DNA from: Candidatus Dojkabacteria bacterium
GTDB lineage: Bacteria > Patescibacteriota > Dojkabacteria > SC72
Assembly: GCA_012842045.1 (NCBI GenBank)
Contig: DUTP01000005.1
Coordinates: forward strand, 77,430 to 141,429
Direction: 5' to 3'
Length of the DNA: 64,000 nucleotides
This document shows positions 7,173 through 64,000 of this stretch, one piece after another. The notes below the pieces were generated by a model. It saw only the letters and a program-made list of their open reading frames with translations, did no database searches and had not been told where the DNA came from. The number at the start of each line of letters is the position of its first letter. Positions within the stretch are counted from its first letter, which is position 1. Both the position numbers and the translations under genes were made by a program.

Positions 7173-8615
7173 ATGAAGAAACTATACATAACAACAACCT
7201 TACCTTATGTTAATGCAGAGCCTCATATTGGTCATGCATTGGAATTTGTTCAGGCAGATGCCATTGCTAGGTATTTTAAAATGAAATTAGGGAATGATAA
7301 TGTTTTTTTTAATGTGGGAACGGATGAGCATGGTCAGAAGATTTGGGAAAAGGCTCAGGAGGAAGGGCTTTCAGTTCAGGATTTTGTAGATAAGTATGCT
7401 CAGAGATTTAAGGATTACTGTAAGCTTTTTTTTGTGGAGTATGATAACTTTTACAGAACTTCAGATAAGGATCATGTAAAAGTAGTTCATGCTTTTTGGA
7501 ATGCATGTAAGAAGTCCGGAGATATATACAAGAAAAGATATATTGGAAAGTACTGTGTAGGTTGTGAAAGATATGTTACAGAGAGAGAACTAGTTGATGG
7601 CAAATGTCCAGACCATGATAAAGTGCCAGAAGAGAGGGATGAGGAAAACTATTTCTTTTCGTTATCTAAGTACAAAAAAGATTTGTTGGAGTGGCTTGAT
7701 GAAAATCCAGATGTATTGAAACCAAAGCAAAAGTTGGGTGAACTCAAAAAGATTATTGACGAGATTGAAGATTTTAGTATTTCGAGATTGAGGAAGAATC
7801 TCTCATGGGGAATAGAAGTTCCTGATGATCCAGAACATGTTGTGTATGTTTGGTTTGATGCTTTAGCAAACTATGTTGCTGCGGTTGGTTATGCTACTGA
7901 TGAGAAGAAATTTAATGAGTGGTGGCCGGCTATCCAAATTTTTGGTCCAGACAACTTAAGATTTCAGGCTGTGATATGGCAAGGTATGTTGAAATCAGCA
8001 GGTCTTGCTCACTCTAGAAAACTTCTTGAGCATGGTATGGTTTTAGCTGCAGATGGTAGGAAAATGGCCAAGACATTGGGGAATGTTGTTTCACCTTTTG
8101 ATCAAGAGAAGAAATATGGTGCAGAGATAGTTAGATTCTATCTCTTGACAGGCATTTCTACATTTGCCGATTCGGCATACAAGGAAGATGACTTGGTCAA
8201 TATGTATAACTCGAGACTTGCAAACAATTTTGGAAACTTACTGAACAGGGTTATTCATCTTGCAAACTCTAAGAATGTAGAAATAAACAAAGAGAAAGCT
8301 GTTGAAAAAGAGTTTAAAGGGATAGTTGATAAATATAGGGAGGATATAGAAGGGTTGTATGATGAATATGAGATTGCTTTGGCCGGTGAAAAGATAGATG
8401 AGCTTGCGGATTGGGGAAATAAATATATTACAGAAAAAGAACCCTGGAGCAAGGATGTGAACTTAGGGGATGCTAAAAAGATTCTAAACAATCTAAGCTA
8501 TCTACTAAAAGTTGTTATACAGCTTTATGTCCCAATAATTCCTGTCAGTGCTGCGAAAGCAGGGGAGGCTCTAAACAAAAAAGAAAAAATCATTCTGTTT
8601 CAAAAGATAGTATAA
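7173..8615 (+). CDS. metG: Methionine--tRNA ligase (core form without C-terminal tRNA-binding domain)
   Basis: Begins MKKLYITTTLPYVNAEPHIGHALE (HIGH motif). Contains CxxC...CPDH zinc knuckle and a KMAKTLGN KMSKS variant. Confidence 0.8.
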   Translation: MKKLYITTTLPYVNAEPHIGHALEFVQADAIARYFKMKLGNDNVFFNVGTDEHGQKIWEKAQEEGLSVQDFVDKYAQRFKDYCKLFFVEYDNFYRTSDKDHVKVVHAFWNACKKSGDIYKKRYIGKYCVGCERYVTERELVDGKCPDHDKVPEERDEENYFFSLSKYKKDLLEWLDENPDVLKPKQKLGELKKIIDEIEDFSISRLRKNLSWGIEVPDDPEHVVYVWFDALANYVAAVGYATDEKKFNEWWPAIQIFGPDNLRFQAVIWQGMLKSAGLAHSRKLLEHGMVLAADGRKMAKTLGNVVSPFDQEKKYGAEIVRFYLLTGISTFADSAYKEDDLVNMYNSRLANNFGNLLNRVIHLANSKNVEINKEKAVEKEFKGIVDKYREDIEGLYDEYEIALAGEKIDELADWGNKYITEKEPWSKDVNLGDAKKILNNLSYLLKVVIQLYVPIIPVSAAKAGEALNKKEKIILFQKIV

Positions 8616-8654
8616 TATGTGCTATACTGAAATCAGATAAACTAAAAGCTGCCC

Positions 8655-9209
8655 ATGCTTAAACGAAGAAAAAAAAGAAAATTTATCAACTTGTTAAATC
8701 CAGTGTATTCTCCTAATGAAGGTTTTGTGAAGGTTTATGAGTGGTTAACATCTGTTGGAAAGTATATGCTGATTGTTGTTGAAATTGTAGCTTTAGCAGT
8801 CTTTATGTCGAGATTTATACTTGATAAAGAAAACAATGATTTAACAGAGGAGATTAATTCGAAGATATCAGTACTTAGTACTGAGCCTTGGAGAAGTAAT
8901 AATATATTTTATGAGAATTATCACAAACTTATTTCTGATGTGTCGGTTGTAAGTAGTAAGCAAGAATTAAATTCTAACGTTGTTAGTGAGATTATTAGCA
9001 GTGTTCCTTTAACTCTTCATTTGCAGACATTTTCTCTGAATGGAGGAAGAGTTTCTCTCACTTTTTCTGCTAGCAATTTGAATGATGTTAGGATATACGA
9101 GTCTGCACTTAAGAGTAATCAACTGTATGATGATGTGACATTTGGTATTTCAAAAGAGGAGTCTGAAATTCAGGTTAACGTAACATTTAATATTAAAGAA
9201 ACTGTATAG
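8655..9209 (+). CDS. pilN: PilN-like type IV pilus assembly protein
   Basis: 184 aa. N-terminal cytoplasmic FINLLNP (the INLLP PilM-binding motif), a single TM helix, then a periplasmic domain. Confidence 0.55.
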   Translation: MLKRRKKRKFINLLNPVYSPNEGFVKVYEWLTSVGKYMLIVVEIVALAVFMSRFILDKENNDLTEEINSKISVLSTEPWRSNNIFYENYHKLISDVSVVSSKQELNSNVVSEIISSVPLTLHLQTFSLNGGRVSLTFSASNLNDVRIYESALKSNQLYDDVTFGISKEESEIQVNVTFNIKETV

Positions 9210-9827: not shown

Positions 9828-10064
9828 ATGGAGATACTAAGAAAATATATCTGGGCAATCTTTCTGTTGTTTGCAGTTGTTGTGGTTTGGCTAGGTATAA
9901 CTTTTTTTATTGATGCTAGACAGAAGAGTATTGTTGGAGATATTAATCAGTATACTAGTGTGATTGAAAGTAGTTTTAATATGGATGTTGTTAACTTGGT
10001 ATACGAAAGGTCAGAGAAGACGCTTCCTGAAACACCAAAAGAGTTTTTACTCTCAGTTCAGTAA
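9828..10064 (+). CDS. Small membrane protein (78 aa), third gene of the pilN/pilO-like operon
   Basis: One TM helix (IWAIFLLFAVVVVWLGITFFI). Begins 1 nt after the pilO-like gene. Confidence 0.4.
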   Translation: MEILRKYIWAIFLLFAVVVVWLGITFFIDARQKSIVGDINQYTSVIESSFNMDVVNLVYERSEKTLPETPKEFLLSVQ

Positions 10065-10070
10065 GAGATG

Positions 10071-11150
10071 CTATTCAATATAATCATCAAGTTTTTGTTG
10101 CTCGGATTTCTCTTTGAGTTTTTTTAGTGCTTTTGCTTCTATTTGTCTAATTCTCTCCCTTGTTACACCAAACTCTTTTCCTACCTCTTCTAATGTTCTT
10201 GATACTCCATCTTCTAGTCCAAATCTTAAAGAGAGCACTCTTCTTTCTCTATCTTGTAATCCGTCTAGGATTTCATGTAACTGATTTTTTAGATATTCTG
10301 TTGTGGCATATTCTTCTGGTGATTCTGACCAATCATCTGGGATTAAGTCTTGTAATTTACTATCTTTTTCTTCACCTATTGGTGTTGAGAGAGATGCTGG
10401 ATTTTGGTTAATCTTTTTAATTTCTGCTATTTTTTCTACTTCAACGTCCATTTCTTTGGCAATTTCTTCGTCTGTCGCTGGTCTTCCTAATCTTGTTGCA
10501 AGAATGTTGTTTGTTTTATTGTATTTGTTAATAGTTTCAATCATATGGACAGGGACTCTAATAGTTCTTGCTTGATCTGCAATGGCTCGTGTAATTGCTT
10601 GTCTAATCCACCAAGTAGCATATGTTGAGAATTTGAAACCTTTATTATGGTCAAATTTCTCTACCGCTCTCATTAACCCAATATTTCCCTCTTGTATGAG
10701 GTCTAGAAGCTCTAGATTGGACTTACTATACTTTTTAGCTATACTGACAACCAGTCTTAAATTCGCAGTTGTGAGAAGCTGTACAGCCTCTTCATCCTTG
10801 TTTTCTATCCTCTTGGCTAGAATAACTTCTTCCTCTTTTGTTAAAAGAGGTATTTTTCCAATTTCTGACAAATATGATCTAATGGCATCTGTGGAAAGAG
10901 TAGATTGGATAGATTTAAGTATTTTAATTTTACTCTCAAGAGATAATTCCTCTTGTTCTTGTGGAGGTGCGCTATCCTCTGGTTCTAGCAGTTCTATTTC
11001 ACTTTCCTGTAATTTCACAAAGATTTTATCAAGTAGTTCTATGTTTTCTTCTATTGTTGGAAAAACATCTAAAAGATCTTCCTGTGTAAGAAAACCTTGT
11101 TCTTTTCCTTTTTTTATTAAGAAACTTATTGCTTTCTCGTTACTACCCAT
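10071..11150 (-). CDS. rpoD: RNA polymerase primary sigma factor (sigma-70 family)
   Basis: Region 2 signature [43 protein letters not shown], plus regions 3 and 4. An acidic N-terminal region 1. Confidence 0.9.
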
Positions 11151-33494: not shown

Positions 33495-33917
33495 ATGCCA
33501 ACAATAAACCAGTTAGTAAGAAAACCTAGAAAATCTGCAAAGAAGAAGACTAAGCATATTCAACTTGCTAGGAACTTCAATCCTTTGAAGAACAGATATA
33601 AAAGTACATCTAATCCTTTTAAGAGAGGTGTATGTCTTCAGGTAAGAACAATGACACCTAAGAAGCCTAACTCAGCACTTCGAAAGGTTGCTAGGGTAAG
33701 GATATCTAACGGAATGGAAGTAACTGCTTACATTCCAGGAGAAGGTCATAATCTTCAAGAGCACTCCGTTGTTTTACTTAAAGCAGGGAAGAAGAGAGAC
33801 TTACCAGGTGTAAAGTATATTGTAGTACGAGGTAAGTATGATGCTGCAGGTGTTAAGGGGAGGAAGAAAGCAAGATCTAAATATGGAGTTAAAAGAGAGG
33901 AGACAGAGTCTGAATAG
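33495..33917 (+). CDS. rpsL: 30S ribosomal protein S12 (140 aa, with a ~15-aa insertion relative to typical S12)
   Basis: [10 protein letters not shown]...[47 protein letters not shown] box at 33482-33487 lies 7 nt upstream of the ATG. Confidence 0.9.
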
Positions 33918-33938
33918 TTTTAATTATGTATTTTTAAT

Positions 33939-34409
33939 ATGAGAGGAAAAAGAGCTAAAAAAAGAGAGATAAAGTTAGATAGGAAATATTCCAACCCTAT
34001 CATTGCAAGATTTATCAGCAAAGTTATGTTAGATGGAAAGAAGAGTCTTTCAGAGGCTTTGGTGTATGCAGCTATTGAAAGTGGAGCAGAAGCAGTCAAA
34101 GAGAAGGATGTTGTAGCTTTTGTTGATAAAGCTATTGATAATGTAAGACCAGCACTTGAGATTAAAGCAAGAAGGGTAGGTGGTGCTAACTATCAAGTTC
34201 CAGTGCCTGTTTCTCCAAAGAGACAAGAAGTATTGGCTGTTAGATGGATAGTGGATGCTTCTAGAAAGAAGAGTGGTAAATCTTTTGATGAAATATTGAA
34301 AGATTTACTAATAGATTCGTATAAGGGAGAAGGTGATGCTGTTAAGAAGAAAGAAGAAGTTGAGAGAATGGCGGAAGCTAACAAAGCATTTGCACACTTT
34401 AGATGGTAG
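33939..34409 (+). CDS. rpsG: 30S ribosomal protein S7
   Basis: 156 aa with the S7 fold and a conserved C-terminus (...FAHFRW). Confidence 0.9.
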   Translation: MRGKRAKKREIKLDRKYSNPIIARFISKVMLDGKKSLSEALVYAAIESGAEAVKEKDVVAFVDKAIDNVRPALEIKARRVGGANYQVPVPVSPKRQEVLAVRWIVDASRKKSGKSFDEILKDLLIDSYKGEGDAVKKKEEVERMAEANKAFAHFRW

Positions 34410-34435
34410 TATTCATTTTAAATTAGGATTGGGAT

Positions 34436-34464
34436 GGAGAGGTGTAATAGCCTCTCTTTTTTTT
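34436..34464 (+). terminator. Intrinsic terminator after rpsG (GGAGAGG-loop-CCTCTC followed by eight T)
   Basis: Seen directly. Confidence 0.6.
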
Positions 34465-34469
34465 ACAGA

Positions 34470-34498
34470 TTGACAATCGACCGTTATACGACTATAAT
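34470..34498 (+). promoter_or_regulatory. Perfect consensus sigma-70 promoter TTGACA-N17-TATAAT, 6 nt upstream of the Fic gene ATG (leaderless)
   Basis: ttgacaatcgaccgttatacgactataatgcgactATG. Confidence 0.6.
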
Positions 34499-34504
34499 GC
34501 GACT

Positions 34505-35545
34505 ATGTTTAGACCAAAATATACTCTAACTAACTCCCTCTTAATCAACATTCGTAAAGTTGGAGAGTTAATAGGGGAGTTAAATAGTAAACAATTAACA
34601 GAAACCGTATTTTTCAACTTGGAGAAAAAGGCTAGAATACTCTCTTCTTTTACATCTACTAAAATAGAGGGGAATCCATTATCACTCACTGATGTCAAGA
34701 TTATTCTTAAAACAGAACCTAAGAATATTAAAGATACAGAGAAAGAAGTAATTAACTACAATGATGTTGTAGTAATGTTAAACGACGAGATTAAGAATAA
34801 AAAGGATTTAATTCTTTCAGATAAGTTAATTTGTAAGATACAGGGTATTGTTACAAAAGGCTTACTTCCTACTTCATATGGAGGGAAATATAGGAAAGAA
34901 CCAGTGTTTGTAAACAATCCATTAACAGGAGAAACAGTGTATTGGCCTCCTGATGCAAAAGATGTGAAAAAGTTGATGAAAGAGTTGATAGATTTTGTAA
35001 ATAAGTCTGAAGGGAAGATAGATCCTTTGATTTTAGCAGGTATTTTTCACAAACAATCAGTTGTAATTCATCCATTTATGGACGGTAATGGAAGAACTAC
35101 AAGACTGGTTACTAAAACATTACTTGCTAAATTAGGTATAAATACATTTCCTCTCTTTAGTTTTGAAAATTACTACAACAAAGATGTGTCTAAATATTTT
35201 CAAAAAGTAGGAGTAATGGGTAACTATTACGATATAGCTAATGATTTAGACTTTACAGAGTGGTTAGAATATTTTGTTGAAGGGATTTTAGATGAATTAA
35301 ATAGAGTTAAGAAAGATTTACCTAGATACAAGGAGAGATTAGAATCACACGAGAAGAAGATAGTAGAATATCTTAAAGATAATGGCTCAATATCATCTAG
35401 TGAGTATTATGATATTAGTAAGAGGGCTAAATCTACAAGAATTAAAGATTTTAGAACATTAAGAGACAAGGGTATTATTAAACCTGTTGGACAAGGAAAA
35501 GCAACATGCTATGTATTAGATAATGATTATTGGTTTTTGGAGTAA
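34505..35545 (+). CDS. Fic/Doc family protein (class II, N-terminal auto-inhibitory [ST]xxxE[GN] motif), with a C-terminal winged-helix domain
   Basis: Catalytic HPFMDGNGRTTRL; N-terminal STKIEGN inhibitory motif; C-terminal wHTH region. Confidence 0.8.
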   Translation: MFRPKYTLTNSLLINIRKVGELIGELNSKQLTETVFFNLEKKARILSSFTSTKIEGNPLSLTDVKIILKTEPKNIKDTEKEVINYNDVVVMLNDEIKNKKDLILSDKLICKIQGIVTKGLLPTSYGGKYRKEPVFVNNPLTGETVYWPPDAKDVKKLMKELIDFVNKSEGKIDPLILAGIFHKQSVVIHPFMDGNGRTTRLVTKTLLAKLGINTFPLFSFENYYNKDVSKYFQKVGVMGNYYDIANDLDFTEWLEYFVEGILDELNRVKKDLPRYKERLESHEKKIVEYLKDNGSISSSEYYDISKRAKSTRIKDFRTLRDKGIIKPVGQGKATCYVLDNDYWFLE

Positions 35546-45396: not shown

Positions 45397-46878
45397 ATGA
45401 AACTTGGTTTTGACAATGACAAATATATAAAGATACAAAGTCAAAATATTCTCAAAAGAACTAAACTTTTCGATAAACTCTATCTTGAGATAGGTGGAAA
45501 GTTATTTGATGATACTCATGCTTCAAGAGTGTTGCCTGGGTTTCAAGCAGATGTAAAAGTGAAAATGTTCCAGAAATTAAAGGAAGATATCGAAGTGGTA
45601 TTTTGTATAAGTGCTAATGATATAGAGAGGAATAAGGTTAGAGCAGAGTATGGAATAACATATGATACAGAAGTGATTAGGTTGATAGGGAACTTACAAA
45701 AGATGGGGTTCTCCATTAATTCTGTTGTAATAACTTTGTATAAAAATCAACCAACAGTTGATACTTTTATTGCTAAGCTTAAACGATATAAGATTAAGAC
45801 ATATATTCATAGGTATACAAAAGGATATCCTACAGATATAGATACAATTGTTAGTGAAGAGGGGTATGGAGCTAATCCGTATATTGAAACTAAGAAAAAG
45901 ATAATACTGGTTACTGCTCCGGGACCAGCTTCTGGTAAATTAGCAACTTGTCTCTCTCAGCTCTATCATGAACATCAAAGAGGAGTGAATGCAGGATATG
46001 CAAAGTTTGAAACTATGCCAGTATGGAATCTCCCATTGAAACATCCTTTAAATATGGCTTATGAAGCAGCCACTGCAGATCTTGGAGATGTTAGTATGTT
46101 AGACTATTTCCACTTAGAGGAATATGGTGAAAAGGCAGTTAGTTATAATAGGGACTTAGAGGTTTTTCCTGTTCTTAAGACAATATTAAACAGGATTGTA
46201 GGAAAAGATGTATACAAATCTCCAACCGATATGGGTGTGAATATGATAGGGGAGTGTATCAAGGATGATAAGGTTGTGCAGGAGGCATCGAAGAAGGAAA
46301 TTGTTAGGAGGTATTACAATGAGATGTGTAACTACAAATTAGGTATAGCTGAGTATGAAGTTCCTGAAAGGGTGAAGAAATTGATGAATGAGTTAAAGAT
46401 AGATGAGTACTATCTTGATGTTGTTAGACCTGCTTTAAAGAAGGCCAGGCGAATAGATAAACACGTTATTTCTCTTAAATTACCAAGTGGGAATATAATT
46501 ACAGGAAGAGAAACAGATCTGTTGAGTCCGGCTAGTAGCTTAATTTTAAATGCTATTAAAGAATTGTCTAATATCCCTGATAATATAAATCTGTTATCAC
46601 CTACTGTACTTAAACCGATGTTAGAACTTATTCCTAGAACAGAAGAGAGAGATGAAACATTAGGTTTAGAAGAAGTTCTAATAGCCTTAAGTATCTCTTC
46701 TGTGACTAATCCTTCTGTGGAGGAGGCTTTAAGTAGTATGAAAAAATTAGCTGGAAGTGATGCACATGCTACATATATAGTAAGTAATGGTGATCTTAAA
46801 ATGTTGAAAAGATTAAAGATTAATCTTACTTGTCAGCCAGTGTTCTATTCTAACAAAATTTATACACTGTCAAAGTGA
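45397..46878 (+). CDS. DUF1846/UPF0371 family protein
   Basis: N-terminus MKLGFDNDKYIKIQSQNILKR...GGKLFDDTHASRVLPGF resembles UPF0371 proteins as I recall them; ~490 aa is the usual size. Confidence 0.55.
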   Translation: MKLGFDNDKYIKIQSQNILKRTKLFDKLYLEIGGKLFDDTHASRVLPGFQADVKVKMFQKLKEDIEVVFCISANDIERNKVRAEYGITYDTEVIRLIGNLQKMGFSINSVVITLYKNQPTVDTFIAKLKRYKIKTYIHRYTKGYPTDIDTIVSEEGYGANPYIETKKKIILVTAPGPASGKLATCLSQLYHEHQRGVNAGYAKFETMPVWNLPLKHPLNMAYEAATADLGDVSMLDYFHLEEYGEKAVSYNRDLEVFPVLKTILNRIVGKDVYKSPTDMGVNMIGECIKDDKVVQEASKKEIVRRYYNEMCNYKLGIAEYEVPERVKKLMNELKIDEYYLDVVRPALKKARRIDKHVISLKLPSGNIITGRETDLLSPASSLILNAIKELSNIPDNINLLSPTVLKPMLELIPRTEERDETLGLEEVLIALSISSVTNPSVEEALSSMKKLAGSDAHATYIVSNGDLKMLKRLKINLTCQPVFYSNKIYTLSK

Positions 46879-46977
46879 GGTAAAAATATTCTTTCCCATC
46901 TCTGGTTTAAAAAGGCAGTATTACTAGGTGAAAAGTGCTAAAATGATGATATCTATAAATTAAGTTGTAGCACTATC

Positions 46978-47535
46978 ATGAAAAAGATTATTTATGTTAC
47001 GGGTAATGAATTTAAGGTGTTAACTGCCTCGAAAATATTAAACCCCCTGGGGTATCAGGTGGAAGCTAAAAAGATAGACTGCCCAGAGATTCAAGCAGAC
47101 ACGATTGAGGAGGTTGCTGAGTATTCTTCTAAATATGCAAGTGATTTTTTGCAGGAGTCTACATTAAAAAATGATTCTGGACTGATAATCCCCGCTCTCA
47201 AAGGCTTCCCAGGGGTTTACTCTAAATATGTAGAAAGTACAGTAGGAGAAGAGGGAATATTGAAACTTATGTTGGATGTTGAAGATAGAGAAGCTTATTT
47301 CCTTGAAGTTTTGGCGTATACGGAGAAAGGAAAAGACCCTGTTACTTTCTTGTCTAAGACAGAAGGGAGCATATCCACTGAATTATCAGGAGATTTTGGT
47401 TGGGGGTATGACAAGATTTTTATTCCAAAAGGAGAGAAGCAAACATTGGCAAACTTTGAAGATGATGTTAGATGGAAGTTCTGGAATGAGAATGCATATA
47501 AAGACTTGGCAGAGTACTTATCGGGCAGTATTTGA
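46978..47535 (+). CDS. rdgB: Non-canonical purine NTP pyrophosphatase (Ham1/RdgB ITPase family)
   Basis: IYVTGNEFKV...GFPGVYSKY motifs. Confidence 0.75.
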   Translation: MKKIIYVTGNEFKVLTASKILNPLGYQVEAKKIDCPEIQADTIEEVAEYSSKYASDFLQESTLKNDSGLIIPALKGFPGVYSKYVESTVGEEGILKLMLDVEDREAYFLEVLAYTEKGKDPVTFLSKTEGSISTELSGDFGWGYDKIFIPKGEKQTLANFEDDVRWKFWNENAYKDLAEYLSGSI

Positions 47536-47603: not shown

Positions 47604-47883
47604 CCTTAGCACGAGTTTGGGAGATGTGTTAAAATGTATATGGAGAAACAGGAATCCTCTTAGAGAACTTCTCTAACGAATCCCCTGAGAAGAAATTGCT
47701 TAGTGTAATGCTATGAAGTGTTGTTAGCACCTTAAAAGTTGAAGAGTGACAGGAAGTCTAAATAAAATTTGACTTTCTGTGTGATGAGTCACACAATTCA
47801 TTTAGTCAGATGTTTTTTGATCAATCCGGCAGTGATACTGGTCGGTCACACTTAGGTGTGTTAAGTTAAGTATCTTTTCAATG

Positions 47884-49430
<1,547 letters not shown>

Positions 49431-49511
49431 AAGGAGTAACCAGATCTTCCTGTCACTTTTTAGCTTTTAAGGCTAAGTTCTTTAATTAAATAGATACTAT
49501 GTACCGAAGAG

Positions 49512-49588
49512 GGGCGCATAGCTCAGCTGGCTAGAGCGCAGTCCTGATAAGACTGAGGTCCCAAGTTCGATTCTTGGTGCGCCCACCA
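49512..49588 (+). tRNA. tRNA-Ile (anticodon GAT), CCA encoded
   Basis: Cloverleaf GGGCGCA acceptor stem, anticodon loop cctGATaag. Sits in the 16S-23S spacer. Confidence 0.85.
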
Positions 49589-49599
49589 GAATGAATGCT

Positions 49600-49673
49600 G
49601 GGCCTGTAGTTCAGTTGGCTAGAACGCTTCATTTGCAATGAAGAGGTCAGGAGTTCGACTCTCCTCAGGTCCA
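49600..49673 (+). tRNA. tRNA-Ala (anticodon TGC), CCA not encoded
   Basis: GGGCCTG acceptor stem with a G3:U70 Ala identity pair; anticodon loop ttTGCaa. Confidence 0.85.
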
Positions 49674-50422
49674 TATTGTTATCAGAAAAAGAAGAGAAAT
49701 CTTTAATTTCTGGGTCAGGATATCTGTATATATTTTTACTGTTGAGGTAGGTCGTAATGTTTTACAGTGAAGATTACAGAATCCGTAGTTGCACATTTAA
49801 AACTGAATAGAAAGTAATTTCAATTAAGCAAATTAAGGGCGTATGGTGAATGCCTTGGCACAAAAGATCGATGAAGGACGTAGTAGATTGCGATAAGCTT
49901 CGGGTAGCTGTCAAACGAGCTTTGATCCGAAGATCTCCGAATGGAGTAATCCAACTGGGATTATGCCCAGTTATCATGCAGTGAATTCATAGCTGTATAG
50001 AAGAGCACGCAGGGAAGTGAAACCTCTCAGTACCTGCAGGAAAAGAGAACAAGAGTTTATTCCCCTAGTAGTGGCGAGCGAAAAGGGAAGAGCCTAAACC
50101 TATACTGTGTAAGAGGAATACGAAGCCTGATTCGCGTTGCGATGATGGCGGACTTGAACTCGCAGGTTGCTACTCGTGCAGTATGGGTGTTGTAAGAGTT
50201 AATGGAAGTGGTAGCAAACACTTCGAGGAGTTACAAAATTCCATTTTAGTAGAATATATCTGGAAAGATATGCCATAGAGAGTGATAGCCTCGTATACGA
50301 AAATGTGGAATCTCCTTTTTAATTTCTTAAGTACCACGGAACACGTGAGATTTTGTGGGAATCAGCCGATACCACTCGGCAAGGCTAAATATCTTTTGTG
50401 ACCGATAGCGAATTAGTATAGA

Positions 50423-50466
<44 letters not shown>

Positions 50467-51975
50467 ACTGAAACCATATGCTTACAAACAGTCGTAGCTG
50501 GTATATCCAGTGGCGGCGTGCCTATTGAAGAATGACCCAGTGAGTTCGTTGTGTGTGGCAAGGTTAACCATGTTTATTGGGGAGCCGAAGCGAAAGCGAG
50601 TCCGAATAGGGCACCTTGAGTCACATGCACGAGACCCGAAACCAGGTGATCCAGCCATGAGCAGAGTGAAGTTCTGAGAAATCAGGATGGAGGCTCGAAC
50701 TCGTTAATGTTACAAAATTATGAGATGACTTGTGGCTAGCGGTAACATGCCAAACGAACCTGGTAATAGCTGGTTCTCCCCGAAATAGCTTTAGGGCTAG
50801 CGTTGTGATTTAAGATGTGGGGGTAGAGCACTGATTGAATTTGGGGCCCGAAAGGGTACCCACTTCAGTCAAACTCCGAATACCATATTGAACATCACAG
50901 CAGTTAGAGCTAGGGATCTAAGTTCCTATGCTCAAGAGGGAAACAGCCCAGATCGTCAGATAAGGACCCTAAATTTTACCTTAGTGGGAAAGGAAGTGAA
51001 ATTTCTCAGACAGTTAGGAGGTTGGCTTAGAGGCAGCCATCCTTTAAAAAATGCGTAAAAGCTTACTAATCAAGAGATTTTGCACTTAAAATTAACGGGG
51101 CTGAAGGTAAATTCCGAAGCTGCGAATTTATACATACTTCGGTATGTATGGGTGGTAGGGGAGCGTTCTATACATGACCGACTTAGCAGTCGGTAATTAG
51201 CTGCGAAGGTGGCCCGTAAGGAGTTGCTGGAGCGTATAGAAGTGAGAATGCTGGGATGAGTAACGTAAAGCAGGTGAAAACCCTGCTCGCTGAATGTCTA
51301 AGGTTTCCATGGCTATGTCAGTCAACCATGGGTTAGTCGGTCCTAAGGAGAGGCTGAAAAGCGTATCCGATGGATAACAGGTTAATATTCCTGTACTACT
51401 GATATTTGAAATGGAGTATGAGGATTGAAGATGCAGGCCCCTTATTGGTTTGGGGTGTAAGCAACAAGAGAGCTCTTCTAGGAAAATCCGGAAGAGTGTT
51501 TCCACCTCGGTGGATGAACGCGAGTTGTGATACAAAGGTGACCTTCGGGAAGCCGATTTGTAGTACTTAATTCTCCAGGAAAAACTTCTATCTTTAACTA
51601 CTTCGGTAGTTAATAAAGTATTAGTAACCGTACTGCAATCCGACACCGGTAGACTGGTGTAAAAGCACCAAGGCGTACGAGTTATGCGTTGTTAAGGAAT
51701 TCGGCAAATTGACCCCGTAAGTTCGCAAGAAGGGGGACTCTACATCATAAGTTTTTTATTTGTGGTGATTAGAGTGGCACAGAATAGGGAAGAACGACTA
51801 GTTACCAAAACTACAGGCGCTTGCAAACTCGCAAGAGGATGTATAAGTGCTGACACCTGCCCAATGCCAGAAGGTTAAGATAATTTGTTAGCTCTCTGCT
51901 GGGTGCACTTCGGTGCCCTAGTGGTTGCGAAGCAAAGAGTCGAAGCCCTGGTCAATGGCGGCTGTAACTATTAGA

Positions 51976-53064
51976 CCTGGTGGGGTAGCAATACCCTGCC
52001 AGGAATTGTAGTTGTAAAATTTGGCTATATGCTGGAACGTCTGAGTATTTCTTGCTACTCATTAGATGATATTCAAATTGTAAGAAATTTGTAATCTCTA
52101 GTAGTTAAAATGTAAGAATGCAGATAATCAGCAGGAAAGATTTGTAATGTCAGATCCTATTTTTACAGAACAATTGAAATGGTTTCTCTCTGGATTTATC
52201 GATGGAGAGGGAAGCTTTTGTCTTAATATTAAGAGTAGAAAGGACTCTAGGTATGGTTTGAGAATAGAGCCAGCTTTTTATGTTTATCAACATGAAAAAA
52301 GTGTCCATATACTTGAATTGTTAAGAAAGATGTTTGGATGTGGAAGTATCCATAGAAAAACATCACCGTATAGCGTTTTTACGTATCAGATTTCTGGTAT
52401 AAAACCTTGCTATACCAAAGTTATTCCTTTCTTTGAGAAGTATCCGTTAATCGTAAAGTCTCAGACTTTTGAAATTTTCAAAAGAGCTGTTGATTTTATG
52501 TATAAAAAGCGACATCTAACTAAGGAAGGTTTTCTTTACTTGGTGGATTTAGTATATGAGATAAACCAACAAGGGAAAGGTAAAAAATGGGATAAAGAGA
52601 CAATAATTACAAAAATCCTCAGAGACTATACGCCAAACTCCTGATAGGGAGATGAGATAGTCCGACCTGTATGGCGACATACAGATGTATATAGAAATAT
52701 ATACACGAATCTAACAAACGTTGTTAGAGGGTAACACAAGTGAACGGTGGTAGATATATATCTACTGAGATATTTGCTAATCTCGGTTTGCTATCTAAAG
52801 ATATAGGGCCGTTTTAAAATCTAGCTATATGCTGGAACATCCTAAACGATACAAGTACCAAAGAGTAACAATCTTGTATTTATGGACAATCAGCAGGAAA
52901 GATCCAAGAAATTGGAAATCCTCAGAGGCTACATGCTAGACACAATATAATATTGTGAAGATATAGTCCGACCTCTACAGTGATGTAGAGAGATACACGA
53001 AGGTGTATCCGCCTAAAAATAGGTCTTCTAGTTTAATGAACACTAGATGGAAGTAACAGAAATG
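51976..53064 (+). mobile_element. Intron in 23S rRNA carrying a homing-endonuclease gene, with an internal degenerate endonuclease-less duplicate of the intron unit (boundaries uncertain by a few nt)
   Basis: rRNA homology breaks after ...CTATTAGA and resumes at CCTAAGGTAGCG (E. coli ~1917-1926 hotspot). The repeat blocks listed under the corresponding finding occur twice. Confidence 0.7.
52147..52644 (+). CDS. LAGLIDADG homing endonuclease (single-motif, 165 aa) encoded within the 23S intron
   Basis: LSGFIDGEGSF motif. Confidence 0.85.
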   Translation: MSDPIFTEQLKWFLSGFIDGEGSFCLNIKSRKDSRYGLRIEPAFYVYQHEKSVHILELLRKMFGCGSIHRKTSPYSVFTYQISGIKPCYTKVIPFFEKYPLIVKSQTFEIFKRAVDFMYKKRHLTKEGFLYLVDLVYEINQQGKGKKWDKETIITKILRDYTPNS

Positions 53065-53633
53065 CCTAAGGTAGCGTAATACCTTGTCACTTAATTAGTG
53101 ACTTGCATGAAAGGTGTAACGATTTTTCCTCTGTCTCGACAACGTGCTCGGTGAAATTGAAATGGCTGTGAAGATGCGGCCTACCTATACCAGGACAAAA
53201 AGACCCCGTGGAGCTTTACTTCAGCTTTGCATTGAGATAAGGTCTCGGATGTATAGAATATGTGGGAGACTATGAAGCAGTTTCGTCAGGAATTGCGGAG
53301 TCGACAGTGTAATACCACTCTTTTGATATTTTATTTCTAACAGTGTCCATTATCTGGATTCTAGACAGTGCATGGTGGGAAGTTTGACTGGGGCGGTTGC
53401 TTGCTAAAGAGTACCGCAAGCGCACTAAGGTCTCCTCAACCCGGATGGAAATCGGGTGAAGAGTGCATAAGCATAAGGAGGCTTTACTGTGAGGGAGACA
53501 TCCCGATCAGTTACGAAAGTAGGTTTAAGTGACCCTTTGGTTGCGCGTGGAAGCGCCATTGTTTAACGGAGATAAGCTACCCCGGGGATAACAGGCTAGT
53601 CTTGCCCGATAGTTCATATTGACGGCAAGGTTC

Positions 53634-53665
<32 letters not shown>

Positions 53666-53698
53666 ATTGGATAAGATCCCAAGGGTTGGACTGTTCGT

Positions 53699-53729
<31 letters not shown>

Positions 53730-54186
53730 CCGGCGTAAGCCAGGTCGGTCTCTATCCGGTATAGGCGTTGTATATTTGAGAGAATCATCCCCTAGTACGA
53801 AAGGATCGGGGAATGGTAACCTCTGGTCTACCAGCTGTTCTACCAAGAGCATAGCTGGGTAGCTAAGTTGCTTTCGGATAAGCACTGAAGGCATATAAGT
53901 GCGAAGCCAAACTCAAGATTAAATATACTTGTGTAGCTTGACTACATGGAAGGTCTGTGGAAGACTACCACATTGATAGGCTCTAAGTGTGAGTATAGTG
54001 ATATACTTAGCTGAGGAGTACTAATTGACCAAAAGCTTCTTTGATTTTTTATTACTTTCTGTTCGGTTTTGAGTGTACAATTACACTCTCGCTCTTTAGA
54101 ATTAAGTCCTGAGCTCTTCGAAAGAAGAGGTCAGGCAAAAGGTATTTATATCTATCTATATATATATAGATAGATAGATTCTTTTT

Positions 54187-54305
54187 GCCTGGCGATTGTA
54201 GTGGAGTGGAACTACCTGACTCCATCCCGAACTCAGAAGTAAAACACTCTAACGCCGAAAATACTTAAACCGCAAGGCTTTGGGAAGATAGGTTATTGCC
54301 AGGAC
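54187..54305 (+). rRNA. rrf: 5S ribosomal RNA
   Basis: GCCTGGCGATTGTAGTGGAG...CCGAACTCAGAAGT...TGCCAGGAC. Confidence 0.85.
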
Positions 54306-54393: not shown

Positions 54394-55125
54394 TTACATC
54401 CTTTTTAAAATTCCTAGCGTTTCTTCTGGGTTTTTAATAATATTGATTTGTATGTCCTTAAGAGATAGAAGGGGATAGTCATTTCCGTATTTATAAAACT
54501 CATCTCCTGTGAAAGTAACATTCGTTAGAGGTATATCTAACATCCTTGCTAGTCTTACTGTATTGTCGGCTTTATTTCTACCCTTAGCTACTATATCGAT
54601 AGTAGCTCTTCCTGTTATAAACATATCAAACCTCCCTTTAAAAATTTCATCAAGATTTCTCCTTATAGATAATCTCTTACTACCGTCAGGATCCCATTTT
54701 TCTCTTACCTCGTTGGAAGCATCTTCTCCTAAACAATCCATTGCGATATACCCTGCTTTCTCTGTGATAATAACTTTCTTCTTTATTCCTTTGAGAGCTT
54801 TGTAAATAATCTCTTTGTCTTTTGGTGGTACCTGCTCTGCCTCGTAGATTAAATTAAGAGTCTTTAGATTATAATTAAATATTTTGTTTCCATAGTAAGG
54901 GCATATAAAAAGGTTGTTGTTTGTAATAGTAATATTTTTTACAAATAATTGATTTAACTGTTTTAAAGTTCTTCCACTCATAATTGCAACGTAGTTCTCT
55001 TTGGTGAGTCTAGCAGTTTCAGAGAGGATATTATCCGATGGAACCGATACAGGTTGGGCGAGTGTGTTGTCATAGTCAAAGATGAATAATTTTTTCATAA
55101 TCAAGTATATCAAAAAAGAACACAC
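54394..55125 (-). CDS. HAD-superfamily (Cof-type, HAD-IIB) phosphatase
   Basis: N-terminal FIFDYDNTL (DxD motif I), a cap domain, and C-terminal GDEFYKYGNDYPL motif IV. Confidence 0.65.
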   Translation of the reverse strand: MCSFLIYLIMKKLFIFDYDNTLAQPVSVPSDNILSETARLTKENYVAIMSGRTLKQLNQLFVKNITITNNNLFICPYYGNKIFNYNLKTLNLIYEAEQVPPKDKEIIYKALKGIKKKVIITEKAGYIAMDCLGEDASNEVREKWDPDGSKRLSIRRNLDEIFKGRFDMFITGRATIDIVAKGRNKADNTVRLARMLDIPLTNVTFTGDEFYKYGNDYPLLSLKDIQINIIKNPEETLGILKRM

Positions 55126-55464
55126 CTAGAGAACCCTAGAGAGAAAACTCTAGGGTTTGGGTTGTTGTGCTAGTGGTAAATAGAAACGTTTACTGTTGGT
55201 TGTCAATCTGTTACGAAACAAGTCTTGTAGAGGACACGAAAAGAAGGGCTTCTTTTAAGAAGTGTAACATTGTGTTTTTCTGTGGCAAAACAGGGTGTTA
55301 TATAGCATGTAAAAAATTTTACATATTTTGACAACGGTGTTCGTTTCCATCGGAAATGTTTTGGCGGCAAGCCTTGAGGTGAGAGTAAAACAATTGTACA
55401 AAACCAGGCAAAGAGAGTGGTGTGATATAATGAAGATGTATAAATTTACAATCTTCTCCTAAAA

Positions 55465-56475
55465 ATGGAAATCAAAAGCTATGGGTCGGTCTGTATTGAG
55501 GGCGGAGATCAGCTTGGTAAGGGTGATGCAACTTCTAGAATAGTTAAAGAACTTGAGGGTCGTAGTGTGAATCTAACATTTTCTTCTTTCCCAATATATG
55601 CAACTCCAATGGGTTCAGTCATACGTTCTCTTTTAAAGGATGGTATCTCAGATGCAAAATTAGAGGGAATAGATACCTTAGATGTAAGGATGGCACTCTT
55701 TGCATTAAATAGATTAGAATTTATGGATGTATATCTAAGTGATAAGAAGTACCAGAATACAATGTTAATTCTTGACAGGAGTCCGTTTAGTAATGCTGTA
55801 TCCATAGGATATTGGCTGTCTTTACAGAAAAATTGGGATGAGAAGGAAGTGACAGGATATATTGACAGAGCAATGGATTTAGAATCTCTAATGATATCAG
55901 AATTGGGGTTGGATAGATGTGTTATTCAATTGAAATCAGAAGAGAGTGAATGGAGAGATATTAGAAAGAGAGAGACAGATCAGCATGAAAAAAAAGAAGT
56001 ACAAGAGAAGAGTAGTAAGGTGTATGAAATGTACAAAAAAACTGTAGGATCTGGTTGGCATCAGGTTGTCACTAAGAGAGATGATGGCTGGCGAGATAGA
56101 GATGATATTTGGAGTGATAATAAAAGAATTCTTAAGGATACATATGGGGATATGGATGATATTAAGGATGGTTTGAGGTACGATATTGGATTTAAAGAGA
56201 TTGTGGAGAATATATATCCTGATGCTGAGTATGATATGAGGCTATATGACACTTACGATGGTGCTATTAAAGAGAATGTAAAAGAGGTGATGTATGAAAG
56301 TGGGTTGAAACTTAGTAGTCAAGTAGCTGGTAGTTGTAGTAGTATCAAATTCTCAAATGGGGAGGTAAAAAGAGAGTTTAGAAGGCTGGTAGGTATAGTC
56401 CCTGATGTGGTGAGAGTGTATGAATATTTCTTAGGTAGGGAATTTATAGGCAAATTAAAGAAAGCATTAGTATGA
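55465..56475 (+). CDS. Thymidylate-kinase-fold protein with a degenerate P-loop and a ~165-aa acidic, Trp-rich C-terminal extension
   Basis: CIEGGDQLGKGDAT (EGxDxxGK, but with G in place of S/T after the Lys) and ILDRSPFSNAVSIGYW (a DRx-type motif). Confidence 0.45.
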   Translation: MEIKSYGSVCIEGGDQLGKGDATSRIVKELEGRSVNLTFSSFPIYATPMGSVIRSLLKDGISDAKLEGIDTLDVRMALFALNRLEFMDVYLSDKKYQNTMLILDRSPFSNAVSIGYWLSLQKNWDEKEVTGYIDRAMDLESLMISELGLDRCVIQLKSEESEWRDIRKRETDQHEKKEVQEKSSKVYEMYKKTVGSGWHQVVTKRDDGWRDRDDIWSDNKRILKDTYGDMDDIKDGLRYDIGFKEIVENIYPDAEYDMRLYDTYDGAIKENVKEVMYESGLKLSSQVAGSCSSIKFSNGEVKREFRRLVGIVPDVVRVYEYFLGREFIGKLKKALV

Positions 56476-57107
56476 TGAGTAGGAGGGATGTGGCTATCAA
56501 ATTACTATCTGAAGTAGAGAAACTCTTTCCAGAGGCTTCTACAGAGCTTGCAAATTGGAAGGATGACTTTCAGTTTTTAGTTGCTGTAATTCTTTCTGCA
56601 CAGACAACTGATATGCAGGTGAATAAGGTTACCCCAAAACTTTTCAGAAAATATCCAAGTGCTAGAAGATTGGCTAGTGCTAATATAAAAGATTTAGAGT
56701 ATACCCTAGGGGGTATTAATTACTTTAGAACAAAATCCAAGAATATTAAGAAGATGGCTAAGATTTTGGTTGAACAGTATGAAGGGCAGCCCCCTAAGTC
56801 GCTGAAGAAGCTTGTTGAACTGCCAGGGGTAGGTTACAAGACTGCAAATGTTTTTCTAAATGAGAGGTATAGAGCTAATGAGGGAATTGCTGTAGATACA
56901 CATGTTTTGAGGGTAGCTAGGGCGTATGGTCTTACTAAGAATATAGATCCAACTAAGGTAGCTCATGATTTAGAGAAACTCTACCCAAAGAAAGATTGGT
57001 ACAAGGTTAATTCGGTGTTTGTTTTGTATGGAAGGTATATCTTAAAGGCTAGAAAACCAGATATGGACAGGGTTGTCCTAAGAGAATATTTGGTGAATGG
57101 AAATTAA
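56472..57107 (+). CDS. nth: HhH-GPD base-excision DNA glycosylase (endonuclease III-like, no C-terminal Fe-S cysteine cluster)
   Basis: LVAVILSAQTTD...LPGVGYKTANVFL HhH-GPD motifs and a catalytic Asp in VDTHV. ATGA overlap with the upstream gene. Confidence 0.7.
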   Translation: MMSRRDVAIKLLSEVEKLFPEASTELANWKDDFQFLVAVILSAQTTDMQVNKVTPKLFRKYPSARRLASANIKDLEYTLGGINYFRTKSKNIKKMAKILVEQYEGQPPKSLKKLVELPGVGYKTANVFLNERYRANEGIAVDTHVLRVARAYGLTKNIDPTKVAHDLEKLYPKKDWYKVNSVFVLYGRYILKARKPDMDRVVLREYLVNGN

Positions 57108-63360: not shown

Positions 63361-64000
63361 TCAGTTTTTATCTTCTTTCTTCTTCTTGTATATGAAGTAT
63401 CCAAAGAGTATTACCAGTAGCACAATCAATACTATCCACCAGTAGTTTGGTTTACTTACTTTTTCTAACTGTACATTAATCTCTATCTCTGCTTCCTCTT
63501 CATTGTCATTGGTTAAGTCAATTGTTCTTTCATCCTTCTGTCCTTTGTATGAGACAATCATGGTATGTGAACCAATATCTACATTCTCAAAGTATGCTTC
63601 TCCATTCTTGTCTGTAATCTCTGTTCTAACTTTAGAATGTATCTCAACAGTTGCACCTTTGATAGGTTTCTTTGATTTGTCATATACCTTTACTCTTAGA
63701 TTTTTGTATAGAGTGGGGTAGGTAGTCTTTTCTACTGTCTTAGAGGCTTCCTCTTCGGTTTGTTCTTCTGTAGTAGTCTCTTCTTCCTCCTCAATTATTG
63801 GATTAAGGAATTTATTATATGGATTTCTTGGTTTTACAATGGGTTTTGAAATAATTGGTTTGGGTGGCTCTGGTACTTCTGGCTCTTTCTCTTCTACAAA
63901 ATACTTCACACTATTATCAGTAGAGGTACTGGCTGGGTTTCTATTTCCTGCTAGGTCTTCTACCATATTAGCGGGTAGGGAAAGTGTTACTGTTTCTCCT
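63361..64000 (-). CDS. Second giant surface-protein paralog; only the C-terminal ~210 aa lie in the window (N-terminus beyond the window end)
   Basis: The C-terminal module aligns with that of the 57112..63327 protein (...STSTDNSV.Y...TVEIHS.VRT.ITD.NGE.YFEN......I.LEKV + TM + KKKE). The frame stays open to position 64000. Confidence 0.7.
   Translation of the reverse strand, partial: GETVTLSLPANMVEDLAGNRNPASTSTDNSVKYFVEEKEPEVPEPPKPIISKPIVKPRNPYNKFLNPIIEEEEETTTEEQTEEEASKTVEKTTYPTLYKNLRVKVYDKSKKPIKGATVEIHSKVRTEITDKNGEAYFENVDIGSHTMIVSYKGQKDERTIDLTNDNEEEAEIEINVQLEKVSKPNYWWIVLIVLLVILFGYFIYKKKKEDKN

Follow-up and report, generated by a model that had tools for sequence, protein, structure and literature searches.

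The stretch of DNA analysed here, called the window below, comprises 64 kb from a member of Candidatus Dojkabacteria, within the candidate phyla radiation (CPR, or Patescibacteria), and all coordinates refer to this whole stretch. On its plus strand the window carries two adjacent open reading frames (ORFs): tmkL, which encodes a long-form protein of the thymidylate kinase (TMK) family, and nth, which encodes a homologue of endonuclease III (EndoIII) without a [4Fe-4S] cluster. Direct reading of the sequence placed the TGA stop codon of tmkL at 56473–56475 and the ATG start codon of nth at 56472–56474, and a second in-frame ATG of nth was located at 56475. An earlier interpretation made from the letters of the DNA alone, referred to as the sequence-only reading, had pointed out this ATGA overlap of the kinase stop and the glycosylase start, and the same overlap was seen here. 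The features of the pair and of its surroundings are listed in Table 1.

Table 1. Positions of tmkL, nth, their parts, and other features in the window.
Feature	Position	Strand	Basis or remark
tmkL, long-form thymidylate-kinase-family gene, 336 aa	55465..56475	+	ORF; Pfam PF02223, 35.5 bits
Complete TMK domain (P-loop nucleoside monophosphate (NMP) kinase) as modelled, residues 1–228	55465..56148	+	AlphaFold2 model, Foldseek, PRK07933 alignment
P-loop EGGDQLGKGD, residues 12–21	55498..55527	+	Lys19 kept, Gly at K+1, Asp at K+2
LID region and D-x-x-E / Q motif, residues 159–181	55939..56007	+	W163, R167, D172, E175, and Q180 invariant or nearly so in alignment A1
Extra C-terminal all-helical domain as modelled, residues 229–336	56149..56472	+	AlphaFold2 models; conserved Y251, N271, K273, Y277
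tmkL/nth stop/start overlap, ATGA	56472..56475	+	Sequence reading; overlapping or abutting junctions also in relatives
nth, EndoIII homologue without [4Fe-4S] cluster, 211 aa	56472..57107	+	ORF; TIGR01083, Pfam HhH-GPD, 1P59 match
Helix-hairpin-helix (HhH) motif LVELPGVGYKTANVFL	56811..56858	+	Catalytic Lys123 at 56838–56840; aligns with LPGVGRKTANV of solved EndoIII
Catalytic Asp142 (VDTHV)	56895..56897	+	Alignment to solved EndoIII
Vestigial Fe-S cluster loop GRYILKARKPDMDRVVLREYL	57030..57092	+	Cys ligands replaced by hydrophobic residues (Leu, Met, others)
Possible extended −10 promoter element TGATATAAT	55423..55431	+	34 nt 5' of the tmkL start codon; candidate, sequence match only
rRNA operon, 16S–tRNA-Ile–tRNA-Ala–23S–5S	47877–54304		
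23S rRNA gene	49822–54044		4.2 kb, compared with a 2.9-kb model
LAGLIDADG homing-endonuclease ORF	52147–52644		Within the 23S rRNA gene
Group I intron match	52762–52990		Within the 23S rRNA gene
HAD-IIB hydrolase gene	54394–55125	−	Between the rRNA operon and tmkL
Predicted surface protein, 2071 aa	57112–63327	−	Converges on nth, gap of 4 bp
Further minus-strand feature	63361–63966	−	
rpsL (S12), rpsG (S7), Fic/DOC-domain protein (346 aa)	33495–35545		Fic/DOC protein in the usual fusA slot
DUF1846 protein (493 aa) and Ham1/RdgB-type protein (185 aa)	45397–47535		Immediately 5' of the rRNA operon

TmkL scored above the cutoff of the Pfam model PF02223, Thymidylate_kin (cutoff 27 bits), bearing out the thymidylate-kinase-like N-terminal signature recognised in the sequence-only reading; the match covered only profile positions 1–94, corresponding to the N-terminal half of the kinase. 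The best full-length match among the NCBIfam models was the actinobacterial-type PRK07933, of which positions 3–197 of 213 aligned with residues 9–204 of TmkL, and a search with the profile of the TmkL family reached TMKs of solved structure with E-values down to 4e-11. The family consisted of 95 clusters, nearly all of 330–350 aa, and the window protein had 100% identity to one from a metagenome-assembled genome of Candidatus Dojkabacteria. Using an alignment of 43 family members with 30–82% identity (alignment A1) as the input, we obtained an AlphaFold2 model of full-length TmkL with a pLDDT (predicted local distance difference test) of 93.2 and a pTM (predicted template-modelling score) of 0.92. 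In the structural comparison of this model with Foldseek, a check that the sequence-only reading had proposed, whole TMK chains of 189–216 residues from Plasmodium falciparum, human, yeast, vaccinia virus, Thermotoga maritima, Aquifex aeolicus, and Mycobacterium tuberculosis aligned with residues 1 to approximately 228 of TmkL, with target TM-scores of 0.64–0.76. In the model, residues 1–228 thus constitute the complete TMK fold, including the LID and the adenine-binding C-terminal part.

Because whole TMK chains aligned up to residue 228 or so, the WRDRDDIW stretch corresponds to the LID and the C-terminal half of the kinase fold, and W163, W198, and W209 were conserved residues of the core or the LID in alignment A1. 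The 165-aa acidic, Trp-rich tail described previously must therefore be redrawn: most of it belongs to the kinase itself, and only residues 229–336 are additional according to the model and the Foldseek alignments. These 108 residues were modelled as one short strand and six helices, and the domain remained confident when modelled alone (pLDDT of 90.5). No structural relative of it was found by Foldseek in the PDB and BFVD (best E-values of 4 and 2), and library scans assigned it to neither a Pfam nor a PHROGs family. The extra domain is probably packed onto the kinase, with an accessory role.

The P-loop of TmkL has Gly in place of Ser/Thr after the Walker lysine, as the sequence-only reading had stated; its description of this P-loop as degenerate did not hold. 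The pattern EGGDQ[VIL]GK[GA]D was present in 90 of 93 family members, which indicates that the P-loop has been selected and has not decayed. None of the 93 sequences had Ser/Thr at the position after the lysine (K+1), and only one did of the 23 TMKs of ordinary length that lay nearest to the family profile. The active, crystallised TMPK of M. tuberculosis (PDB ID: 1G3U) likewise reads GKRT. Judging from these comparisons, a residue other than Ser/Thr after the lysine is normal within this branch of TMKs.

Conservation was not confined to the P-loop. Residues E12, G13, D15, G18, K19, Y45, R83, D104, R105, S109, Y116, D172, E175, and Q180 were invariant among the 43 sequences of alignment A1, so that the P-loop glycine, Asp15, and Lys19 were retained throughout. 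When TmkL was aligned with M. tuberculosis TMPK (alignment A4), in which a 3-residue insertion was placed after Ser-Asn-Ala, D15, Y45, F79, R83, D104, R105, S109, N110, Y116, D172, and E175 of TmkL paired with D9, Y39, F70, R74, D94, R95, S99, N100, Y103, D163, and E166 of the M. tuberculosis enzyme, respectively. Nearly all of these positions, equivalent to those of the deoxythymidine monophosphate (dTMP) site, were invariant across alignment A1. In complexes of M. tuberculosis TMPK with dTMP, Phe70 stacks on the thymine, Arg74 and Asn100 form hydrogen bonds with the base, Asp9 binds the 3'-OH, and the phosphate touches Arg95, Tyr39, and Mg2+ (PMC3619541). The E152 and Q157 of human TMPK aligned with E175 and Q180 of TmkL, and the numbering of the two proteins coincided for E12, G13, D15, and K19. 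In M. tuberculosis TMPK, Tyr103 acts at the 2' position, and Asp163 and Glu166 belong to the D-x-Y/H-E motif of the LID. As far as alignments can tell, the pattern of conservation is that of a working dTMP kinase, and not that of a pseudokinase or of a kinase with a remodelled base pocket.

TmkL and M. tuberculosis TMPK (PDB IDs: 1G3U and 1GSI) share the TMK fold, the FPxY motif in which Tyr39 corresponds to Tyr45, the stacking phenylalanine, the base-reading Arg74/Asn100 pair, the aspartate at the 3'-OH (Asp9), the DR motif, the D-x-Y/H-E motif of the LID, and a residue other than Ser/Thr after the Walker lysine. They differ in that the M. tuberculosis enzyme has 214 aa, no C-terminal domain, and Thr at K+2, where TmkL has Asp, whereas TmkL has the 3-residue insertion between Ser-Asn-Ala and the equivalent of Tyr103; overall identity was approximately 19%. 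The best matches in both the profile and the Foldseek searches were the type I TMKs of P. falciparum (2WWF), human (1E2D), yeast (1TMK), and vaccinia virus (2V54), with which TmkL has the motifs FP..T.iG, LF.aNR.E, and DRy.fS in common. However, Arg16 and Arg45 of type I enzymes are replaced by Gln and Tyr in TmkL, respectively, GKST is replaced by GKGD, and none of the type I enzymes has the extra domain.

The protein encoded by nth scored 209 bits with TIGR01083, just under the cutoff of 211.7, over positions 5–191 of 192, and 79.5 bits with Pfam HhH-GPD. It aligned end to end with the EndoIII of Geobacillus stearothermophilus (1P59, E = 2e-38) and of Escherichia coli (2ABK, E = 1e-28). Both K123 (GVGYKTANV) and D142 (VDTHV) were kept in all seven aligned orthologues. 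Nth is thus predicted from the alignments to be a catalytically intact, bifunctional glycosylase/lyase. With the solved enzymes (2ABK, 1P59, and 1ORN) it has in common the HhH lysine, the catalytic aspartate, and the length of the Fe-S loop, whereas the four cluster cysteines of EndoIII are replaced by hydrophobic residues in the window protein, which contains no cysteine anywhere. The 'GRYhCKAqsPqC' of 1P59, for example, pairs with 'GRYiLKArkPdM' of Nth. The Cys-x6-Cys-x2-Cys-x5-Cys motif was absent from all seven orthologues examined, one of which ends earlier, and the Fe-S Pfam domain was listed for none of the 120 closest homologues (203–221 aa); where these had a source name, they were 'endonuclease III' of Dojkabacteria in the naming of NCBI. 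The absence of the C-terminal four-Cys cluster from the EndoIII-like glycosylase, another point of the sequence-only reading, was therefore confirmed. An EndoIII without the cluster is notable and has a precedent, since Ntg1 of Saccharomyces cerevisiae is a functional EndoIII homologue naturally devoid of the iron-sulfur center (PMC4666366). Ntg1 resembles the window protein in being active without an Fe-S centre and differs in being eukaryotic, in having lost the cluster independently, and in having no linked kinase gene.

The sequence-only reading had suggested that conservation of the gene pair be checked in relatives, and the pair proved to be kept class-wide; the refuting case named in that reading, a pair kept together in no related genome, thus clearly did not apply. 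In eight look-ups ranging from 100% to 30% kinase identity, an HhH-GPD gene always followed the kinase gene, and a small antisense ORF intervened once. A scan of the species-representative genomes of GTDB gave 57 tmkL loci, mostly one per genome, all titled Dojkabacteria, WS6, or with generic names of the CPR/Patescibacteria type. In 52 of the 54 loci with sufficient room, nth lay immediately downstream on the same strand; the two misses were a truncated nth and a run of N, both assembly artefacts. In nearly every lineage the two genes overlapped or abutted, even where kinase identity had fallen to 28–30%. By comparison, rpsA was directly next to nth in 22 of 40 loci and within 3 kb in 32 of 40, 26 of 30 loci had clpC no more than 7 kb away, and 10 of 20 had the HAD hydrolase gene upstream; the link between tmkL and nth is tighter than any neighbouring adjacency. 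Two metagenome-assembled genomes, JAXGWV01 (loci L018 and L021) and DAOOVU01 (L025 and L028), contained two different tmkL–nth loci each on separate contigs, probably because strains or species were mixed in the bin, rather than through a genuine duplication. An apparent TMK–Nth fusion protein in locus L065 was rejected, as the single ORF crosses a stretch of N. We also rejected a tmkL pseudogene in locus L067 as a sign of dispensability, as both of its frameshifts lie in A7–A8 homopolymers and three neighbouring genes are intact; these frameshifts are likely a sequencing error.

The pair was located on the same strand as, and just downstream of, a complete rRNA operon in all seven loci checked, and the distance from the end of the 5S gene to the tmkL start was usually 370–490 bp (L006, L008, L037, L047, L056, and L064). 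Read-through from the rRNA promoter into tmkL–nth is conceivable. In the lineage of the window, the HAD-IIB hydrolase gene is inserted on the opposite strand between the 5S gene and tmkL. A candidate extended −10 element upstream of tmkL is given in Table 1; a generic scan for promoters and terminators found no enrichment above shuffled controls. The genes around the pair were of the housekeeping kind: the rRNA operon, rpsA, clpC, radA, and rho.

A complete TMK fold together with conserved equivalents of the dTMP-site residues of M. tuberculosis TMPK favours the view, mentioned as an alternative in the sequence-only reading, that tmkL is the organism's divergent tmk. We therefore consider it probable, at roughly 60%, that TmkL is a divergent long-form housekeeping dTMP kinase of Dojkabacteria, predicted from alignments and the model and encoded in an ancient operon with an Fe-S-free nth. 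Residues 1–228 would bind dTMP as in the M. tuberculosis enzyme, with Phe79 stacking on the thymine, Arg83 and Asn110 reading the base, Asp15 holding the 3'-OH, Tyr45 and Arg105 holding the phosphate, and Tyr116 excluding ribonucleotides. The phosphate of ATP would then be moved by way of Lys19, the LID residue Arg167, and the Asp172/Glu175 pair, while the carboxylate of Asp21, which replaces the usual Thr at K+2, may ligate Mg2+ or a Mg-bound water. The helical C-terminal domain would pack on the kinase in an accessory capacity. According to this proposal, tmkL would be co-transcribed, and presumably translationally coupled, with the gene of a bifunctional EndoIII, so that an ancient class-wide operon beside the single rRNA operon would join the supply of DNA precursors to base-excision repair. 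TmkL may well be the only tmk product of the genome. Neither the 64-kb window nor approximately 750 kb of the 57 Dojkabacteria loci with 10-kb flanks contained a further ORF of the TMK family, in a search that covered the conserved neighbourhood only.

The suggestion of the sequence-only reading that the pair might act on modified nucleotides or bases received no direct support. A PADLOC scan gave no match for the kinase, and Nth matched nothing there but a generic HhH model named 'type II nicking endonuclease' (E = 7e-11). In PHROGs, the kinase matched a thymidylate kinase family and did so weakly (E = 0.017), and the neighbours were housekeeping genes. A defence or phage origin was rejected, since nothing relevant emerged from the two scans. 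Most likely, the pair consists of ordinary housekeeping genes in an unusual form, and is neither a new system nor a modified-base system. In the literature, we found neither a tmk–nth operon nor a thymidylate kinase of this form from Dojkabacteria or the CPR.

Several observations weigh against the assignment of TmkL as a housekeeping dTMP kinase. TmkL did not reach the equivalog cutoffs of TIGR00041 for dTMP kinases (26.1 bits versus 83.25) or of PRK07933 (34 bits versus 193), and the databases differ in naming, in that NCBI has 'hypothetical' where IMG and UniRef label family members thymidylate kinase. Of the 23 nearest ordinary-length TMKs, 22 had Thr at K+2, where 23 of the 24 representatives of the core family had Asp; the lineage-specific change in the P-loop, as read from these sequences, is thus the replacement of Thr by Asp at K+2, and no characterised TMK is known to have Asp there. 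A dTMP kinase activity also does not account for the C-terminal domain. Moreover, TmkL diverges faster than its partner: the median identity to the window protein was 39% for TmkL versus 68% for Nth, and in all 53 loci compared Nth was better conserved than TmkL. Within TmkL, the median identity to the window protein was 43% for the TMK domain and 29% for the C-terminal domain.

Further points of this kind came from the wider relatives. A profile search over 1.84 billion representative proteins gave 35 matches of the core family (E <= 1e-30), followed by a second tier of uncharacterised long TMK-like proteins of 280–460 aa; ordinary TMKs of 210–230 aa first appeared at about E = 1e-13. The second-tier proteins (P0245–P0304 and others) resemble TmkL in their TMK domain. 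In several, the resemblance extends to a helical domain at the C-terminus that ends in a YPE[IL] motif, and the profile aligned up to position 332. The P-loops of the second tier read GKNE, GKNT, GKHT, or GKNY, in contrast to GKGD of TmkL. At three second-tier loci examined, there was no nth alongside, and the neighbours were nrdR, class II ribonucleotide reductase, uvrC, NUDIX, DNA_alkylation, and AlkZ-like genes. At one of these three loci (L068, GCA_054922035.1, on a 1.13-Mb contig), two aberrant TMK-family genes, a 201-aa one (8551–9156, minus strand) and a long form (10001–11050, plus strand), flank nrdR, approximately 850 bp apart. The 201-aa protein, which scored 44.5 bits, lacks the P-loop Asp, the equivalent of Arg83, and the DR motif, all of which the 349-aa long form keeps, with GKNE as its P-loop. 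The case of the 201-aa gene as a canonical tmk proving paralogy was weakened, as the protein itself is degenerate; judging from its residues, it is if anything the long form in L068 that looks like a competent enzyme. At another locus (L070, 8344–11125), the gene of a 374-aa long-form TMK-like protein follows uvrC on its strand at a distance of 53 bp, with nrdR and class II ribonucleotide reductase genes approximately 5 kb upstream.

On this evidence, an alternative that we regard as unlikely is that TmkL is a specialised, TMK-derived paralogue for a damaged, modified, or non-thymine (deoxy)NMP, while dTDP would be made by the product of an ordinary tmk at some other place in the genome. The paralogue would work with base-excision repair or nucleotide-pool sanitation, possibly tethered to Nth through its C-terminal domain. 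The adjacency of tmkL and nth, the tightest of the region, would fit such a role, as would the distant long forms that follow uvrC directly or have NUDIX, DNA_alkylation, and AlkZ-like genes nearby, the second TMK-family gene 850 bp away in L068, and the pairing of an acidic kinase with a basic glycosylase (computed isoelectric points of 5.2 for TmkL and 9.8 for Nth). The Asp at K+2 and the 3-residue insertion before Tyr116 also set the family apart from ordinary TMKs. However, the residues that contact thymine, deoxyribose, and phosphate in bona fide TMKs are all retained, and the second TMK in L068, being itself degenerate, does not mark the long form there as the non-housekeeping copy. In addition, nth is not adjacent in the three distant relatives, redundancy is unlikely in genomes of approximately 0.75 Mb, and, by the established chemistry of base-excision repair, the products of Nth need no kinase.

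A more elaborate proposal, which we hold to be doubtful, is that of a kinase–glycosylase module. In it, TmkL would be more than the housekeeping enzyme: the C-terminal domain would dock it on Nth or on the DNA repair machinery in general and tie the excision of damaged pyrimidines to a local provision of thymidine nucleotides or to control of their quality, or TmkL would phosphorylate a non-canonical pyrimidine nucleotide. If this were true, the long TMK-like proteins beside uvrC, NUDIX, and alkylation-repair genes would make up a class of nucleotide kinases linked to repair that has so far gone unrecognised.

The pairing might also be devoid of functional meaning, two unrelated housekeeping genes having been frozen together in small, slowly rearranging genomes. 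The wider block, comprising the rRNA operon, tmkL, nth, rpsA, clpC, radA, and rho, has likewise been kept for the most part, as the clpC counts illustrate, and no mechanistic need joins a dTMP kinase to Nth. Nevertheless, the tmkL–nth adjacency is stricter than every neighbouring one, and overlap or abutment across nearly all lineages argues for at least a selected co-expression; we consider this explanation improbable. Least probable in our view is that TmkL has lost catalysis altogether and is a pseudokinase whose TMK fold, its P-loop impaired, serves as nucleotide sensor or scaffold for Nth. The usual hydroxyl residues are indeed gone at both K+1 and K+2, and TmkL is less well conserved in sequence than Nth, but Lys19, Asp15, Asp104/Arg105, Arg167, and Asp172/Glu175 hardly vary or do not vary at all down to 30% identity, as would be expected of an active enzyme rather than a scaffold, and Asp could plausibly bind metal at K+2.

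Other features of the window were observed along the way. The 23S rRNA gene contains a group I intron and a LAGLIDADG homing-endonuclease ORF; in the related Dojkabacteria locus L006, LAGLIDADG and GIY-YIG ORFs lie within the rRNA operon, and locus L012 has the same intron as the window. Immediately 5' of the rRNA operon, the Ham1/RdgB-type protein next to the DUF1846 protein is a non-canonical NTP pyrophosphatase, a nucleotide-pool sanitising enzyme approximately 8 kb from the tmkL–nth pair. The predicted surface protein converging on nth has a C-terminal transmembrane helix, DUF285 repeats, and Big_12/Big_13 and CarboxypepD_reg domains. Its counterpart in a relative with 71% identity has 1716 aa or is broken into several genes, pointing to a variable, giant adhesin-like locus. 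Farther upstream, the Fic/DOC-domain protein follows rpsL and rpsG in the slot usually occupied by fusA (EF-G) in the str operon.

With the cluster loss in Nth, a whole bacterial class would have an EndoIII in which the four Fe-S ligands have become hydrophobic residues, which fits an economy of iron and Fe-S clusters in very small genomes and provides a clean natural case for telling apart a structural and a functional role of the cluster in the EndoIII family. On the main reading, the change from Thr to Asp at K+2 and the 108-residue domain would be natural experiments on Mg-ATP binding and on the gain of accessory modules in P-loop NMP kinases. If TmkL is the divergent housekeeping dTMP kinase proposed here, the dTDP of Dojkabacteria would be made by a TMK that pipelines annotate inconsistently, and this would affect metabolic reconstructions of the CPR.

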